Positions 8,443 through 14,934 of a stretch of DNA of 17,225 bases are shown in pieces (the stretch's first letter is position 1; each line of letters starts with the position of its first letter). Below the pieces are notes generated by a model. It did no database searches, was not told the origin of the DNA, and saw nothing but the letters and a program-made list of their open reading frames with translations. The stretch is from a virus (taxonomy: Duplodnaviria > Heunggongvirae > Uroviricota > Caudoviricetes), in the IMG/VR virus record IMGVR_UViG_2537561992_000019; one strand, written 5' to 3'. Position numbers and translations under genes: made by a program.

Positions 8443-9141
8443 TTACCCGTTATCTCCTGTCGTTATTTTCTGTATGACATCACGATGCTTATTAATTTCC
8501 CGCAGCGCGGCGCATAAGCGCTCCCACTTCTGAACCTGACCTTTTGCCCGGCGCAGCTCGCGGTTAGCCACATGCAGCGATGGTAAAATCAGACCATCCG
8601 GATGCTTTCTGATGAACGACGACTGTGACTGCACTGTGACCGCCACACTTTCAGTTTTAATTTCTTCCTGTGTTTCCGCTTCCCGGACTGGTAACGCAAC
8701 ACCTGCCGGCTGAGGAAAGGCTTTACCATCGGTTTCCGTTACCGATGCAGCTTTCGGCTCTGCCGGTAAATTATCGCCCGGTATGCAGTAACGATATTGA
8801 CCGTCCTGATTTACGCGAATCAGACGACCTTTGCTGACAGCCATCGCCAGTGATGAATTCGCCCGGCGGGAGGTAATCCCGAACATTAACGCCAGTTCGT
8901 CAGCCGACTGAGGACCATGCTGTTCAATCGCGTTAATCAGCATCTCTGCAGTGGTTTTTGGGGCCGCTTCAGTTGCCTCACTCGTCAGCCACCACATCGA
9001 CCCCTTGTTATCAGCTTCGCCACGACGCTTCAGCTTCCAGAGTTCGGTAACAGCATCGTCACGGCTGATTTCAAGACGGGCTGCAATCTCGTGCGACGAG
9101 GCTTTTTTCAGTGCTTTCAGTGCGTCAAAAACGGTTTCCAT
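8443..9141 (-). CDS. hypothetical phage protein, 232 aa, with two winged-helix-like segments (possibly DUF1627-like)
   Basis: ATG at 9141..9139 preceded by GGGAGG; the track ORF starts 22 codons upstream without a Shine-Dalgarno. Confidence 0.6.
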
Positions 9142-9175
9142 TAAATTTTCCTCCCGGTAAAAATTACTTCTCAAC

Positions 9176-9838
9176 TCAGACAAAACCGGCCGCCTTCCGG
9201 CGCTCATATTCCTGTTTCAGCAATTCAATTGGCGTTGGCCCTGGCGGGCGTTTGGGTGCTGCCAGTTGTCGCCGGACTGGCGGAACACTGAGGCCATTAC
9301 CAACATGCTTTGCCCATTTCGTCAGCTGCCTTTCCACAAGCCGTTTTAACTCCCCTTCGGTCATCTGGCGCTCAATCCCCTTTGAACGCATCTCGAGGCA
9401 AATGTGGTACAGCACCGGCTGTGGCCACGGGTATTTATCACTCCCGTCGTACCGCCAGGATTCATTCCTCCAGCGACGGTATTCCTCCATCACGGCATCC
9501 ACCGTCAGGCCAAATGGATTTGCCCCGCTCTCCGAAATCAACGCCACAAACTCAGCCAGATCCGGAGGCCACGTTTCACCCGCCCGGCAGCGGTCCATGC
9601 ACCGACGGCAGATCTGCCGGATTTGCTGTTCAGTCATCGCGCCAATCTGAGCAATCCAGAGTTTCGACGGCGCAGCCCCGTTCTTCTGAGTCCAGCGGTT
9701 CGAATACACCTCCCCCATAAGCTCCCACAGCTTCCAGGCCGTTTCCGTTGCTGATAAATCCGTTTTCACGTTCCCACTGTTCGCGTGCAGCCCGGATTTC
9801 CTGAACTGCCCGTGATGCGGTGCCACCTGGTGCTGCAT
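9176..9838 (-). CDS. replication protein P-like (helicase loader), up to 220 aa
   Basis: C-terminal half resembles lambda P as I recall it ([17 protein letters not shown] vs ESYPWKSNAHYWLVTNLY). ATG 9838 has AGGGGG upstream; alternative starts at 9718 and 9637. Confidence 0.65.
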
Positions 9839-10667
9839 GGCTTACCCCCTTGCTGACTGGTTTTACCTGTGCCCTGACGTGCTGCACGTGGCGGGCAAAT
9901 TTCTGCTCCCACTGAACCTGCGTGAAAACCTTCCCCTCCGCCATCCAGTAATCCCGGAATGCGGCAAGCTCAGCAGGTGTAAACTCAGGCTCAGGCAGAG
10001 CCATACCCCACACTGCTGCCCGCTGTCGAAAATCCGGCGACGGTTGCCAGACTCCAGTCATCGGAAATTTCCCGATCGGTTCGCTCAGGCCGTCCAGGTA
10101 TTCAGGTTCGGCTGTCTGCAACGACGCGTCATTCAACTCACCGGTCGTAGCACTCTCGCGCATGCGCGCGTTATGTGTGGGGTTTAATTCTTTATCTGTA
10201 TCTGTATCTGTCGTGATTTGTCGTGACATATGCGTGACGCGTCGTGACTCATCGTGACAATCAGTGTTCTGCTTCCGCAGTCTTTCCCGCTCCCGCTGCG
10301 CTCTCTTGCGCTCTGCCGGGGATTTTGCGGTTTGCGAAACATTACCGTTATCCTCCTTCATCACCTGGCGTTTTTCCCATCCGGAAATAAGATCACCATC
10401 CAGAACTCGCCCCTGCATTGCATGCAAAATTGAATCAATCACGTCTTCCGTCACATCAAGCGCACTTGCTAAATCTTCCGTCGTGACATCAATGTGACCA
10501 CGTAGTGACACGCCGTGACATGTCGTGACATTTCGTGACGCACTCACCAGAAGGTGGATATACACCGCCATCACTGTTGCGATTGGCTGTCCTGAGACCC
10601 TGGCAATGGTTCGCCATTTGGGATCATTTGGCATGTCATGCCACAATCTGAGCCAGGCATTAGCCAT
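9630..10667 (-). CDS. replication initiator O-like protein, 345 aa, with origin iterons inside the coding sequence
   Basis: ATG at 10667..10665 preceded by GAGGTGA; two internal GTGAC iteron arrays; immediately upstream of the P-like gene. Confidence 0.7.
   Translation of the reverse strand: MANAWLRLWHDMPNDPKWRTIARVSGQPIATVMAVYIHLLVSASRNVTTCHGVSLRGHIDVTTEDLASALDVTEDVIDSILHAMQGRVLDGDLISGWEKRQVMKEDNGNVSQTAKSPAERKRAQRERERLRKQNTDCHDESRRVTHMSRQITTDTDTDKELNPTHNARMRESATTGELNDASLQTAEPEYLDGLSEPIGKFPMTGVWQPSPDFRQRAAVWGMALPEPEFTPAELAAFRDYWMAEGKVFTQVQWEQKFARHVQHVRAQVKPVSKGVSHAAPGGTASRAVQEIRAAREQWERENGFISNGNGLEAVGAYGGGVFEPLDSEERGCAVETLDCSDWRDD
10211..10258. repeat. iteron array A: five (T)CGTGA(C/T) repeats at 10-11 bp spacing, next to an (ATCTGT)x3 tract at 10194..10210
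   Basis: Repeat starts at 10211, 10221, 10232, 10242 and 10252, read directly. Confidence 0.6.
10483..10539. repeat. iteron array B: six GTGAC repeats at 10-11 bp spacing
   Basis: GTGAC at 10483, 10494, 10505, 10515, 10525 and 10535, read directly. Confidence 0.6.
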
Positions 10668-10735
10668 ACTCACCTCATCTGATACCGAACTTTACCCTCG
10701 AACATCCGGAATAAATCCGGCATGAATATTGTTGG

Positions 10736-11161
10736 TCAATGCACGACAACAGCATTACCAGGCTGACCACCACTGTTAGTCAGGGTGCCCCAGGCGATCG
10801 CCGCTGCGACAAAATCATCCACATCTTTCACCAGCCGATCCCTCCGTTCGACGATCTCACGGTAATATTCAGAGCTGTGACTGCGCATACGGGCCACCAG
10901 CAGAGGCGGCATTGCCTTTTCGATCGCCGGTAACAGAGCCTGAATTTTTTCAACAGCATCAGGGGTGTCTTTATCCAGCCAACGGAAAATTTTCTGGGTA
11001 TTACGAGCCAGGGCTTCCGGATGGCTGTCGTCGTACAGTTCCGGGAACGTCATCCCCAGCTCGAAATAAGTCCGGGCTATTTCAGCTGCAGGAACTTTCT
11101 CACCGTCCGGATAGGCCCAGGCATTGATCGCCATGCGGATGTGCTCATGTTTGATTTTCAT
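10736..11161 (-). CDS. YdaT-like protein at the cII position, 141 aa
   Basis: Starts MKIKHEHI...; its ATG overlaps the stop of the cro 3' fragment (ATGA). Family call is from recollection. Confidence 0.5.
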   Translation of the reverse strand: MKIKHEHIRMAINAWAYPDGEKVPAAEIARTYFELGMTFPELYDDSHPEALARNTQKIFRWLDKDTPDAVEKIQALLPAIEKAMPPLLVARMRSHSSEYYREIVERRDRLVKDVDDFVAAAIAWGTLTNSGGQPGNAVVVH

Positions 11162-11307
11162 GAATCCCCCTTTCCTTCGCCCTGAGTGGTATCCTTCTTT
11201 TTGTAAAGTTCTGGGTTCAAAGATAATTTCCCCTTGGAGTATGCAGCAGCTTCCGCAGCCCTCCCCTTCGGAACTATTTCACCAGGACGCTTACGCCACA
11301 TGTAAAT
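11161..11307 (-). pseudogene. cro: cro-like gene, 3' fragment (48 codons plus the duplicated ATT codon)
   Basis: Joins in frame with the 5' fragment at 13535..13615 once the IS and inverted segment are removed. Confidence 0.7.
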
Positions 11308-11350
11308 TGAGGTGTACTGGCAATAGCGGACACTACCATTTGTTCTTTTT

Positions 11351-12255
11351 TTAAGCAGCCATCTGATGATATTTTTCCCTGAAGGCTGCCGGGGAGATAT
11401 TCCCCAGACGAGAGTGACGACGCTGACGATTGTAGAAAATCTCAATGTATTCCCGTATTACTGAGATGGCTTCATCCCGGTTATTAAAACGATAGTGGCT
11501 CAGGCTCTCATTTTTCAGCGTTCCCCAGAAGCTTTCCATCGGAGCGTTGTCGTAACAGTTACCTTTACGCGACATTGATGTTTTCAGACCAAACTGCTCC
11601 TGTATGACCCGGTAATCGTATGCGCAGTACTGTGAACCTCGATCAGAGTGGTGGATTAGCCCGGCAGGTGGGCGCTGGCTCCTGAGCGCCATAAACAGAG
11701 CTTTACCTGTCAGCTCTTTTGTCATGCGCTCTCCCATGGCGTAGCCGACAATTTCGCACGTATAAACATCTTTGATGCCAGCGAGGTACAACCATCCCTC
11801 CTGTGTGGCAACATACGTCAGGTCCGCCACCCAGACCTGATTTGGTGCTGTAGGAGCGAACGTCTGGTTCAGCAGATTTGGCGCAACTGGCAGATTGTGG
11901 TTCGAGTTCGTAGTCGCTCTGAACTTGCGTTTCTGCTTACAGCGTAGCCTTAGCTCCTTACGAAGACGTGCCAGTCGGTCACGACCAACGATGATGCCAT
12001 TCTCTGCCAGCTCCGTCTGGAGCCGCCGGGTTCCATATGTTTCGCGAGTGCGGATATGTGCCACCTTAATCTCCAGTTTTAGCCGCTCATCACTTTGTTT
12101 CTGTCTGAGGGTTCATGCTGTACCCAGTTGTAATAACCGCTCCTGGATACACCAAATACCTGACACATCGCTTCAATGGGAAATTGTTGTCGCCATTGTT
12201 CGATTAACGCGTATTTTTCAGCGACTCCTGTGCAAAATACGCTGTTGCTTTTTTT
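11351..12255 (-). pseudogene. IS3-family transposase orfB, frameshifted by a 1-bp deletion
   Basis: TTT at 12098..12100 where copy 2 has AAAA at 14086..14089, truncating the OrfAB frame. Confidence 0.7.
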
Positions 12256-12506
12256 AATATATCTCGCTCAAGGCGAGCTTCATTTAACGCCTTACGCAGT
12301 TGCAGAATTTCAGATTCCAGTTCAGCCACCGTGCGGGAACCAGGAGTACCGAGCCCTTTTCTGGCGGCGGTAACCCATTGTCCTAAAGTGCCTTCAGGAA
12401 GAGATAATCGGGAAGCGCCTTCACTGATCGAAAGTTGATTTTCAAGAACCGTTCTGACAGCTTCGGCTTTGAACTCTTTAGAGTAACGTTGGGTTTTTCT
12501 GCTCAT
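12204..12506 (-). CDS. IS3-family transposase OrfA, 100 aa
   Basis: Protein identical to OrfA of copy 2; HTH-containing N-terminal transposase part. Confidence 0.85.
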   Translation of the reverse strand: MSRKTQRYSKEFKAEAVRTVLENQLSISEGASRLSLPEGTLGQWVTAARKGLGTPGSRTVAELESEILQLRKALNEARLERDILKKATAYFAQESLKNTR

Positions 12507-12698
12507 TATTAGCTCCTTCTGATGCCATTCTATTTCAGGAAGGAGTGTCCGTTAAACTCAGGCTACCTCACTGTTATACAAAGTGTTCCCGCCGTCATGT
12601 TCATACGCCTCGGGCTGGCTACTTAACCCCTGACCACTGCCGGGTAACTCGAGGTATTGCCCGACGTTCTGTGGGGCGAGGTAGGGTGGTATGTAATA

Positions 12699-12727
12699 AA
12701 TCTAAAAGTATTTAGTTTTTCAGTCAA
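12699..12727 (-). promoter_or_regulatory. candidate PL-like promoter (-35 TTGACT, 17-nt spacer, -10 TAGATT) with overlapping operator 12700..12717
   Basis: Hexamers read on the minus strand; operator ATCTAA-N6-TTAGTT overlaps the -10; palindrome AATCTAGATT at 12732..12741. Confidence 0.4.
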
Positions 12728-12746
12728 GATAAATCTAGATTAATTT

Positions 12747-12772
12747 AAAAAAAAGGTCGGCATTGCCGACCT
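12747..12772 (-). terminator. rho-independent terminator directly after the cI stop
   Basis: Hairpin GGTCGGC-ATT-GCCGACC followed by U8 on the minus strand. Confidence 0.6.
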
Positions 12773-12792
12773 CAAGTAAAGGACGTGGCGGG

Positions 12793-13440
12793 TTATAAGT
12801 TGAACTGTACACCTTTTGCTACGGCAACAATTTTACACTCTGGTGTAAGTAAGGATGACTGATAGCGTGGATTGAGAGGGCTTAAATACACAAGCTTCCC
12901 ATCAATAACTAATTTCTTTATAGTCATAGATGGTTCATTTTTAAGCGGATCCGGAACTATTACAGCGACGATGCTGCCATTTTTATAACTTTCTCCTGGC
13001 CTTAGGATCACAGTAGCACCAACTGGGATACTCGGTGATCCTGATGGGTTATGCATTGTGTCATCAGGCATTGAAACGGCAAAATCACCTTCCTCGACAT
13101 CAAAGAATGTGGTGATCCTATCGACATTTCCCATTGTTTTCTCTCCTTTTAAGATTAGGAAAGAAATCGCCTCACCCCACGAAAGGTAGGGGATCTTGGT
13201 GCCTGAGGTACTTTGTACAAAAGATAATTCAGGAGACGATACTCCATATAGGAGATAGGACTCAGTAGTTCCTAATGCCTGGGCTAACTTACTTAGAGCT
13301 TTGCTACCTGGTTCGTTTAGATCTTTCTCCCAGTACCCTATAGTAACCCCAGTCACGCCTGAAAGCTTACCCAGTTCTACTTGGGTCAGCCCCTTATCTT
13401 TTCTAAGTCTCTTAAGCCTGATGCCAAGGCTTTCCATCAT
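12793..13440 (-). CDS. cI: CI-like prophage repressor, 215 aa (N-terminal HTH, C-terminal LexA-like S24 peptidase)
   Basis: ATG at 13440..13438 preceded by AGGAGAAA. HTH LTQVELGKLSGVTGVTIGYWE; S24 region with Ser in AVSM and Lys in TIKKL, resembling lambda CI (recalled). Confidence 0.85.
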   Translation of the reverse strand: MMESLGIRLKRLRKDKGLTQVELGKLSGVTGVTIGYWEKDLNEPGSKALSKLAQALGTTESYLLYGVSSPELSFVQSTSGTKIPYLSWGEAISFLILKGEKTMGNVDRITTFFDVEEGDFAVSMPDDTMHNPSGSPSIPVGATVILRPGESYKNGSIVAVIVPDPLKNEPSMTIKKLVIDGKLVYLSPLNPRYQSSLLTPECKIVAVAKGVQFNL

Positions 13441-13479
13441 TTTCTCCTGCAAATTGAATATAAATTATTTTAGATTGCA

Positions 13480-13522
13480 TTGACCTAAAAAAAATTATCT
13501 TGTAATCTAAAAATACTTAGAT
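13480..13522 (+). promoter_or_regulatory. candidate PR-like promoter (-35 TTGACC, 17-nt spacer, -10 TAATCT) with perfect operator ATCTAA-N6-TTAGAT at 13505..13522
   Basis: Read directly; drives the cro fragment, which has AGGAGG Shine-Dalgarno and ATG at 13535. Confidence 0.45.
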
Positions 13523-13534
13523 TTAGGAGGTAAA

Positions 13535-13615
13535 ATGCGAGTTGATGAACTTGTCCAGTTTTTTGGTTCTGTTCAGAGGGTTGCCGATTTTTATGGGATA
13601 ACCCGCGAAGCTATT
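13535..13615 (+). pseudogene. cro: cro-like gene, 5' fragment (27 codons), truncated by the IS insertion
   Basis: MRVDELVQFFGSVQRVADFYGITREAI; the next codon is TGA supplied by the first bases of the IS. Confidence 0.7.
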
Positions 13616-13679
13616 TGAGGTAGCCTGAGTTTAACGGACACTCCTTCCTGAAATAGAATGGCATCAGAAGGAGCTAATA

Positions 13680-13982
13680 ATGAGCAGAAAAACCCAACGT
13701 TACTCTAAAGAGTTCAAAGCCGAAGCTGTCAGAACGGTTCTTGAAAATCAACTTTCGATCAGTGAAGGCGCTTCCCGATTATCTCTTCCTGAAGGCACTT
13801 TAGGACAATGGGTTACCGCCGCCAGAAAAGGGCTCGGTACTCCTGGTTCCCGCACGGTGGCTGAACTGGAATCTGAAATTCTGCAACTGCGTAAGGCGTT
13901 AAATGAAGCTCGCCTTGAGCGAGATATATTAAAAAAAGCAACAGCGTATTTTGCACAGGAGTCGCTGAAAAATACGCGTTAA
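13680..13982 (+). CDS. IS3-family transposase OrfA, 100 aa
   Basis: ATG at 13680 after GAAGGAG; contains the A7G run at 13931..13938 near its 3' end. Confidence 0.85.
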   Translation: MSRKTQRYSKEFKAEAVRTVLENQLSISEGASRLSLPEGTLGQWVTAARKGLGTPGSRTVAELESEILQLRKALNEARLERDILKKATAYFAQESLKNTR

Positions 13983-14836
13983 TCGAACAATGGCGACAAC
14001 AATTTCCCATTGAAGCGATGTGTCAGGTATTTGGTGTATCCAGGAGCGGTTATTACAACTGGGTACAGCATGAACCCTCAGACAGAAAACAAAGTGATGA
14101 GCGGCTAAAACTGGAGATTAAGGTGGCACATATCCGCACTCGCGAAACATATGGAACCCGGCGGCTCCAGACGGAGCTGGCAGAGAATGGCATCATCGTT
14201 GGTCGTGACCGACTGGCACGTCTTCGTAAGGAGCTAAGGCTACGCTGTAAGCAGAAACGCAAGTTCAGAGCGACTACGAACTCGAACCACAATCTGCCAG
14301 TTGCGCCAAATCTGCTGAACCAGACGTTCGCTCCTACAGCACCAAATCAGGTCTGGGTGGCGGACCTGACGTATGTTGCCACACAGGAGGGATGGTTGTA
14401 CCTCGCTGGCATCAAAGATGTTTATACGTGCGAAATTGTCGGCTACGCCATGGGAGAGCGCATGACAAAAGAGCTGACAGGTAAAGCTCTGTTTATGGCG
14501 CTCAGGAGCCAGCGCCCACCTGCCGGGCTAATCCACCACTCTGATCGAGGTTCACAGTACTGCGCATACGATTACCGGGTCATACAGGAGCAGTTTGGTC
14601 TGAAAACATCAATGTCGCGTAAAGGTAACTGTTACGACAACGCTCCGATGGAAAGCTTCTGGGGAACGCTGAAAAATGAGAGCCTGAGCCACTATCGTTT
14701 TAATAACCGGGATGAAGCCATCTCAGTAATACGGGAATACATTGAGATTTTCTACAATCGTCAGCGTCGTCACTCTCGTCTGGGGAATATCTCCCCGGCA
14801 GCCTTCAGGGAAAAATATCATCAGATGGCTGCTTAA
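13931..14836 (+). CDS. IS3-family transposase orfB segment, expressed as an OrfAB fusion by programmed -1 frameshift
   Basis: The -1 frame is open from the A7G run to the stop at 14836; first in-frame ATG is at 14018. C-terminal half has the IS3-family catalytic region (HSDRGSQY, MSRKGNCYDNAPMESFW). Confidence 0.8.
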   Translation, partial: KKSNSVFCTGVAEKYALIEQWRQQFPIEAMCQVFGVSRSGYYNWVQHEPSDRKQSDERLKLEIKVAHIRTRETYGTRRLQTELAENGIIVGRDRLARLRKELRLRCKQKRKFRATTNSNHNLPVAPNLLNQTFAPTAPNQVWVADLTYVATQEGWLYLAGIKDVYTCEIVGYAMGERMTKELTGKALFMALRSQRPPAGLIHHSDRGSQYCAYDYRVIQEQFGLKTSMSRKGNCYDNAPMESFWGTLKNESLSHYRFNNRDEAISVIREYIEIFYNRQRRHSRLGNISPAAFREKYHQMAA

Positions 14837-14934
14837 AAAAAGAACAAATGGTAGTGTCCGCTATTGCCAGTACACCTCACAGCGCAGCAGGTTTTTAGTT
14901 CCGCGACCCGGCGTTAAGGGTAAATGAGGTCAAC

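Follow-up and report, generated by a model that had tools for sequence, protein, structure and literature searches.

The virus record IMGVR_UViG_2537561992_000019 (Caudoviricetes), analysed here as one stretch of 17,225 nucleotides (the window), holds a replication initiator gene (9630..10667, minus strand) in which one short direct repeat occurs in two separate, phased arrays: array A in the DNA encoding the interdomain linker of the protein, and array B in the DNA encoding its N-terminal domain (N-domain). Judging from codon usage and from the way in which the repeat changes between relatives, both arrays are DNA-level elements which co-vary and are under selection. Array A is probably the core iteron block of the origin, and array B appears most likely to be a second binding array for the initiator. 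The dual layout is standard in homologues of this gene, so that the oddity belongs to the family and not to this window.

Two phased arrays of one repeat

On the plus strand both arrays share the unit (T)CGTGAC, repeated in one orientation with a period of 10-11 bp. Array A (10211..10258, minus strand) comprises five direct repeats with a coding-strand spacing of 10, 10, 11 and 10 bp; on the plus strand CGTGA starts at 10212, 10222, 10233, 10243 and 10253 (spacing 10, 11, 10, 10), the first unit ending in T (TCGTGAT) and the third beginning with G (GCGTGAC). Array B (10481..10539, minus strand) comprises six direct repeats, GTCACG(A) on the coding strand, spaced 10, 10, 10, 11 and 11 bp, with plus-strand GTGAC starts at 10483, 10494, 10505, 10515, 10525 and 10535 and with degenerate second and third units (ATGTGAC, TAGTGAC). 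The arrays lie 272 bp apart from start to start, with an intervening gap of ~230 bp. An earlier reading of this DNA from the sequence alone (the sequence-only reading) had already placed the five repeats of array A at 10211..10258 and a further six about 270 bp away in the N-terminal coding part; reading the sequence anew and scanning it for k-mers bore this out, save that the first unit of array B begins at ~10481 and not at 10483.

Taking a phased chain to be at least four copies of any 5-mer at 9-12 bp spacing, arrays A and B were the only such chains returned by a k-mer scan of the window, and no further phased array was found there, in the 20-kb locus of Escherichia coli E2865 or in the whole 46-kb genome of Tritos, a related phage. 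Exact matches to CGTGAC number 16 in 17.2 kb, against ~7.2 expected window-wide, and 8 of the 16 fall within the two ~50-bp arrays. Array A is translated into part of the interdomain linker, CHDESRRVTHMSRQIT, and array B into a loop of the N-domain, amino acids (aa) 45-64, SRNVTTCHGVSLRGHIDVTT. Across its copies, the repeat unit is translated in each of the three frames (S-R, V-T, C-H-G, V-S-L, G-H) and is therefore a repeat of the DNA and not of the peptide; a peptide-level repeat was ruled out by this three-frame reading together with the synonymous sites fixed to the repeat. The six-copy array B corresponds to the common four-copy form plus a 21-bp insertion, which adds two repeats and the seven residues TCHGVSL.

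The layout was compared across 64 homologous loci, each from a different species. In 44 of the 64, one 5-mer core is phased in the same orientation at both gene nucleotides (nt) ~130-175 (array B) and ~340-500 (array A); another eight loci have array A only, and the remaining 12 fell outside the strict criterion, some of them with irregular arrays (e.g. L102, L105). An equivalent of array A at gene nt ~340-500 is present in nearly all of the loci. The density of the core is 23/kb in array B and 16.5/kb in array A, against 1.1-1.2/kb in the rest of the loci, with a small selection bias, as among the overlapping top k-mers of array A the one commonest in array B was kept. Close relatives carry the dual arrangement without exception (82/82, comprising 80 IMG/VR contigs and two genome loci), with six B copies in 81/82 and five or six A copies. 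The sequence-only reading had set its interest in the two arrays against their being standard in well-studied homologues: they are standard (44/64 and 82/82), but in no phage that has been studied. Across the homologues the copy number of array B ranges from three to six, and the A-B gaps are mostly 219-247 bp in the clade whose repeat is GTCACG. Array A has a mean of 5.1 copies in the loci without array B (n=8) and 4.1 in those with it (n=44), a weak hint on the number of sites.

The repeat variant differs by clade (GTCACG, GAACGC, GTAACG(C) or GTGACGC) and always switches in both arrays. Within a single subclade of ~75-80% amino-acid identity, locus L104 has six copies of GTCACG in array B and six in array A, while L102 and L105 have GTAACG instead, with four and three copies, respectively, in array B and three and four in array A. 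Codon choice was compared in 21 species-level loci of the GTCACG clade between array B and the rest of the N-domain coding region. Serine is encoded by TCA in 20/24 cases inside array B and in 14/141 in the rest of the N-domain, valine by GTC in 48/56 and 25/155, threonine by ACG in 45/58 and 16/77, glycine by GGT in 21/21 and 25/120, and histidine by CAC in 21/21 and 24/48, respectively. Because synonymous codons are fixed by the repeat and the variant switches jointly with that of array A, array B is a selected DNA element.

A few of the distant relatives place their repeats elsewhere. L130 and L140 (beta-proteobacterial metagenome-assembled genome) have AACGC/CGAAC arrays of four and three copies, respectively, ~500 bp upstream of the gene (-540..-505), and L134 and L143 (Serratia, Pantoea) have two CTACGTA-type arrays, one at 331-357 in the linker and one ~300 bp further downstream, at 656-703. 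In the window, a weaker third phased chain lies between the arrays at 10284-10313 (gene nt 360-386; GAGCG x3 on the coding strand), in a stretch encoding the basic RKRAQRERER, and is also found in L095; it may be simple Arg/Glu codon repetition. A 15-bp near-palindrome, TGGCATGTCATGCCA, at 10629-10643 (initiator codons 10-15, encoding WHDMP) has 80% identity to the repeat unit and is conserved in Tritos.

The candidate origin core and its initiator

As the sequence-only reading had noted, array A is abutted by an (ATCTGT)x3 tract on the plus strand (10194-10211), which is translated from the minus strand as the Thr-Asp repeat TDTDTD. The hexamers form part of an AT-rich tract (10170..10211, minus strand) with a purine-rich coding strand, on which (ACAGAT)x3 is followed by AAAGAATTAAA, the whole encoding TDTDTDKELN; this tract is the candidate DNA-unwinding element. 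The GC content reaches the lowest value of the gene here, 32.5% in 40-bp windows at 10170-10219, and just beyond the tract lies a perfect GC-rich palindrome of 12 bp, CGCGCATGCGCG (10157..10168). In the direction of transcription the order is thus array A, AT-rich tract, palindrome. Since array A adjoins both the lowest-GC tract and the palindrome, it is probably the origin core, and is the best candidate for what the sequence-only reading took to be the origin proper. Array B has no AT-rich flank, the surrounding GC content being 45-55%.

This organisation recurs among the homologous loci. In most of the 64, the 30-mer with the lowest GC content within the first 650 nt falls just 3' of array A, at a median position of 424. 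The AT-rich tract, built from hexamer units GATAAA, GATACA or GAGAAG, has a GC content of 17-30% in most loci and ~80% purine on the coding strand, and it is kept in hosts of 58-70% GC, where its mean is 30% GC across the 32 loci concerned. Past the tract, inverted repeats with a perfect stem of at least 7 are found in 30% of loci versus 6% of controls, and hairpin-capable inverted repeats are enriched there relative to control windows (Mann-Whitney p=3.6e-8; L083-L146).

The core also leaves its mark on the protein. Throughout L083-L146 the Asp-Lys/Asp-Thr linker (gene nt ~380-520) is encoded nearly entirely by AT-rich codons (GAT, AAA, ACA), even in hosts of 60-70% GC (e.g. L101, L103, L133, L142), and it is a clear case of DNA-level composition dictating protein sequence. 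Several of the homologue palindromes encode a recurring peptide such as TSLRSVGE (L086, L095, L100, L133).

The initiator itself has 345 aa when read from its ATG, the listed open reading frame beginning at a GTG at 10673, and consists of a predicted N-terminal domain of the origin-binding type, a charged linker and a DnaT-like C-terminal domain. The latter matches the Pfam DnaT DNA-binding domain PF17948 (aa 203-269, E=1.4e-17, 63.6 bits versus a cut-off of 25); the NCBIfam DnaT equivalog gave 93 bits versus a cut-off of 201, from which it follows that the initiator has a DnaT domain only and is not DnaT itself. The protein matches PHROG 1408/3729 ('replication initiation protein'), and its RefSeq name in E. 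coli E2865 is 'DnaT-like ssDNA-binding domain-containing protein'. Homology to lambda O, implied when the sequence-only reading called the gene O-like, was ruled out, as the only Pfam match was the DnaT domain and Phage_rep_O was not matched; for the same reason the O genes of phages phi80 and 82 and of the Shiga toxin (Stx) phages, which had been put forward for comparison, are the wrong comparators. On the basis of position, partner and role, the initiator nevertheless appears O-like, that is, a functional analogue of lambda O and not a homologue.

The N-terminal 111 aa matched no Pfam family even at E<=10. Weak PHROG matches were obtained to replisome organizers (phrog_4880, 5.7e-05; phrog_5968, 9e-04) and to a DnaD-like family (phrog_10469, 2.3e-08), and close relatives carry the NCBI label 'phage replisome organizer'. 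The N-domain defines a large family, which at 50% identity comprises 1546 clusters for E<=0.001 and 836 for E<=1e-10, and which extends over Gamma-, Beta- and Alphaproteobacteria and Acidobacteria, including prophages of E. coli O157:H7 and other enterohaemorrhagic E. coli (EHEC). The N-domain is present in 26 deposited phage records, none of them a model phage, and we found no experimental study of the family in the literature. A sequence search of the PDB identified no solved structure related to the initiator. In an AlphaFold2 (AF2) model with a mean predicted local distance difference test (pLDDT) score of 75.8, the N-domain consists of helices 5-16, 18-27, 31-47, 65-72 and 76-86 with short strands. 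The loop encoded by array B lies at the surface between helices 31-47 and 65-72 (pLDDT ~62) and takes the seven-residue, two-repeat insertion; array A encodes a linker which is also of low confidence in the model. With array B in a low-confidence loop and array A in a low-confidence linker, both would occupy permissive coding positions.

The N-domain is also the sole constant companion of the arrays, as the flanking genes vary widely between loci, and so do the C-terminal regions of the Rep proteins, which in some loci are DnaT-like and in others unrelated. Here, megablast places a mosaic junction within the initiator gene at 10190..10210, just past array A. On one side, 9100-10209 (the C-terminal half, the P-like loader gene and a DUF1627 gene) is 89% identical to ydaU/ydaV of Rac-SA53; on the other, 10189-11200 (the N-terminal half, both arrays and a YdaT-like gene) is ~82% identical to Tritos, 606R7 and others. 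A search with 9600-10700 gave a near-full-length match in 658 of 5426 complete E. coli genomes, and many of the E. coli matches end at query 594-608, corresponding to 10193-10207 of the window. The N-domain and both arrays are on the same side of the junction and therefore travel as one unit. In Rac-SA53, ydaU encodes an N-domain of the DUF1376 type and has different repeats, an inverted-repeat cluster, by its linker, and no second array was found in it; the dual layout thus follows the N-domain and not the genome slot. In Tritos (L150, 33216-33638) an unannotated gene of 140 aa comes after the N-domain and the two arrays, with no P-like loader at that place, so that the initiator module pairs with different downstream partners.

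The role of the second array

We consider that there is about an even chance that these elements form the bipartite replication origin of a lambdoid prophage, in which array A and the AT-rich tract would be the melting core and array B an accessory block of the same sites, cooperating with it by looping. The N-domain of the initiator would bind head-to-tail along array A, whose direct repeats of 10-11 bp all face the same side of the helix, and this binding would distort the adjacent purine-skewed, AT-rich hexamer tract until it melts. Host DnaB could then be recruited by the P-like loader together with the DnaT-like C-terminal domain. Array A, the AT-rich tract and the palindrome would jointly form the core, while array B, ~230 bp upstream in the loop-coding part, would bind the same initiator and pair with array A by DNA looping; the two would make one bipartite initiation complex, strengthening or tuning its firing. 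In this scheme we infer the identity of the binder, the looping and the sign of the effect of array B. That array B would be the accessory partner is suggested by its lack of an AT-rich flank, its loss in some lineages, its variation in copy number and the slightly larger number of A copies where it is missing.

Several observations weigh against this proposal. A loop between the arrays would not include the melting site, as the AT-rich tract is located outside the A-B interval, and eight loci keep array A in the absence of array B, which is therefore not essential to the family. When the A-B gaps (158-247 bp) were examined for helical phasing, the Rayleigh test gave p=0.0008 at period 10.0 and p=0.05 at 10.5, but common descent and terminal repeats gained or lost confound these values. 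A Foldseek search of the N-domain against the PDB returned only winged-helix regulators, all insignificant (best E=0.41). Between repeat classes the helix-turn-helix-like region (aa 65-95) hardly differs, and no specificity residues were found in the recognition-helix region, so the repeat variants may not represent distinct specificities; class-specific residues of the N-domain occur only in the stretches encoded by arrays A and B. Either the variants have a recognised core in common, as ACG is present in every one of them, or the loop itself helps to read the DNA. The concerted change of the repeats could in part be due to gene conversion between the arrays. Finally, the copy of the origin in the window may be silent because of an inversion described below.

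If the loop does contact DNA, array B could serve as a binding site and at the same time encode the portion of the protein which reads the repeat. A change in the repeat would then alter site and reader in one step, and such a self-referential arrangement, if true, would account for the concerted switches and let origin specificity jump from one phage to another. More modestly, the N-domain family might depend on an initiation complex in which the two arrays are necessarily looped together, where lambda has a single O-some. We regard either version as a long shot.

An alternative to cooperation is that array B exerts negative control, by titrating the initiator, by handcuffing with array A on the same or a sister molecule, as second iteron sets do in plasmids P1, F and RK2, or by blocking RNA polymerase; a block ~130 nt into the gene may auto-limit expression of rep and P as well as transcription through the origin. 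This would suit an array with as many sites as array A or more (six versus five here), with no AT-rich flank, dispensable in eight loci, varying from three to six copies as expected of a tuning element, and placed early in a transcript that must cross it to make Rep. Set against this, a lytic phage has little to gain from restraint of its copy number, and the higher number of A copies in loci without array B points to a required total of sites more readily than to repression. There is also no promoter-like site near array B: a search for an internal promoter found none there, the sole promoter-like match in 9100-11400 being at 9174-9145, and matches in that region were no more numerous than in shuffles. 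We regard negative control as possible but doubtful. A replication-fork barrier, in which initiator bound at array B (and A) would stop the fork heading to the immunity region, seems unlikely to us. Such a barrier would give unidirectional replication or a switch from theta to rolling-circle replication, by analogy with what has been proposed for G38P of phage SPP1 at oriR. The SPP1 replisome organizer binds oriL in its own gene as well as oriR, and the complex at oriR has been proposed to halt the fork and thereby set off sigma replication (PMC3485210). In our case all A and B repeats point in the same direction and form a polar array lying to one side of the candidate melting site. The SPP1 sites, however, are 12 kb apart rather than 230 bp, the full Tritos genome has no second distant array, and even for SPP1 the barrier is only a model in the cited paper (PMC3485210).

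The repeats might also be bound by another factor, such as the YdaT/CII-like product, the DUF1627 protein or a host protein. In phages of E. coli the YdaT-like gene and the N-domain half are inherited together, the matches of 606R7, 640R1, 813R8, 204576 and Tritos all spanning 10189 to ~11170-11200, but both arrays persist in distant loci with unrelated upstream and downstream genes, and the repeat variant differs among phages of one host group, which argues against a host factor; we consider this explanation quite improbable. Array B could lastly have no function at the DNA level, and be either the relic of a duplication of array A or a by-product of the peptide ASRNVTRGH..VT. The peptide is indeed conserved, R58 and G59 being invariant even in homologues without repeats, and the class-specific residues coincide with the array. 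Yet synonymous positions are fixed to the repeat, which is read in three frames, its variant changes together with that of array A, and the 21-bp insertion adds exactly two repeats. This last possibility is very remote and strongly disfavoured.

In the lambda origin, iterons, AT-rich tract and palindrome follow one another in this order in the DNA encoding the interdomain linker of O, which separates an origin-binding N-terminal half from a loader-binding C-terminal half. Midway through O, one block of four iterons of 18 bp adjoins an AT-rich tract of 38 bp (PMC3349717). This single block of four is what the sequence-only reading had contrasted with the two arrays; the Stx phages have six contiguous iterons (PMC7466680). 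The module in the window resembles the origins of lambda and of the Stx phages 933W and P27 in its location inside the initiator gene, between the coding DNA of the N-terminal and C-terminal halves, in the succession of iterons and AT-rich tract (PMC3349717, PMC7466680), in the P-type loader encoded by the next gene and in the phage recombination junction at the origin. It differs from them in that the initiator does not belong to Phage_rep_O, in that the repeats are abutting units of 10-11 bp instead of spaced units of 18 bp, and in that a second block is found ~230 bp upstream in the N-domain coding region, where lambda and the Stx phages have one block only.

Second initiator-binding clusters are in themselves already known, from SPP1, the phage-inducible chromosomal islands (PICIs), plasmids P1, F and RK2, and P4. 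In the plasmids (P1 incC/incA, F incB/incC, RK2 oriV) two clusters of the same repeat lie near rep, one serving as origin and the other as accessory control, and both are bound by the same Rep. The second cluster has the same sequence and orientation and stands apart from the origin cluster, as in the window, but plasmid iterons are 17-22 bp long and non-coding, their purpose is copy-number control of a stable plasmid, and the Rep proteins are presumably unrelated to the initiator studied here. In P4, a satellite phage, ori and crr are two separate clusters of the same short repeat which are bound by the alpha protein and are both needed in cis; unlike arrays A and B they are kilobases apart, and their initiator is an unrelated primase-helicase. 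In PICIs, including the Staphylococcus aureus pathogenicity islands (SaPIs), two iteron sets flank an AT-rich candidate melting site outside the rep gene (PMC6092414). The association of two iteron sets with such a site is common to both systems; in our case the AT-rich tract lies beyond array A and not between the arrays, and both arrays are coding. G38P of SPP1 binds an origin in its own coding sequence and a second site (PMC3485210), a parallel to the binding predicted here which extends to the name 'phage replisome organizer' on relatives of the initiator and to the weak PHROG replisome-organizer/DnaD-like matches. The SPP1 sites, however, are 12 kb apart with only one of them in the gene, the host is Gram-positive, and the N-domain of our initiator has no Pfam match to Phage_rep_org_N.

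We found no published description of the repeats of the N-domain family or of their dual arrangement, and a co-varying second array within the initiator's own N-domain coding sequence, present family-wide, is apparently undescribed. The family allows one to ask whether phage origins, like iteron plasmids, employ a second set of iterons, and it offers an instance of overlapping codes, in which repeats dictate the codons of a loop and a linker. The conserved map (accessory array, core array, AT-rich tract, palindrome) can guide the cloning of minimal origins from these prophages. Moreover, the repeat variant could mark the type of replication module in EHEC prophage typing, given that this module is absent from the Eru typing of EHEC phage replication modules, which does not mention repeats either (PMC8044961).

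Neighbouring genes and state of this prophage copy

The gene following the initiator (9176..9637, minus strand) encodes a lambda-P-like helicase loader (Pfam PF06992 Phage_lambda_P, E=4e-16; PHROG 109 'P-like helicase loader'; RefSeq 'replication protein P'), its start overlapping the initiator stop by 8 nt. Downstream of it lies the DUF1627 gene (8443-9207, minus strand), and the YdaT/CII-like gene is located upstream of the initiator (10736-11161, minus strand). The segment 9600-10700 is 100% identical to a prophage beside potC/potD in E. coli E2865 and 99.2% identical to a prophage in O157:H7 TW14359.

Two inverted copies of an IS3-family insertion sequence (IS), ~1263 bp each, are found at ~11308-12570 and ~13617-14878, and the 1047-bp segment between them (12571-13616) is inverted relative to the E2865 prophage. 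Both inversion junctions have 4-bp overlaps, as expected of target duplications. On the inverted segment lie the gene of a LexA-family repressor, the 5' end of cro and, between the two, the intergenic region in which the early promoters are expected; the operon comprising the cII-like gene, rep and P has therefore probably been cut off from its promoter. The inversion splits cro and leaves arrays A and B intact.

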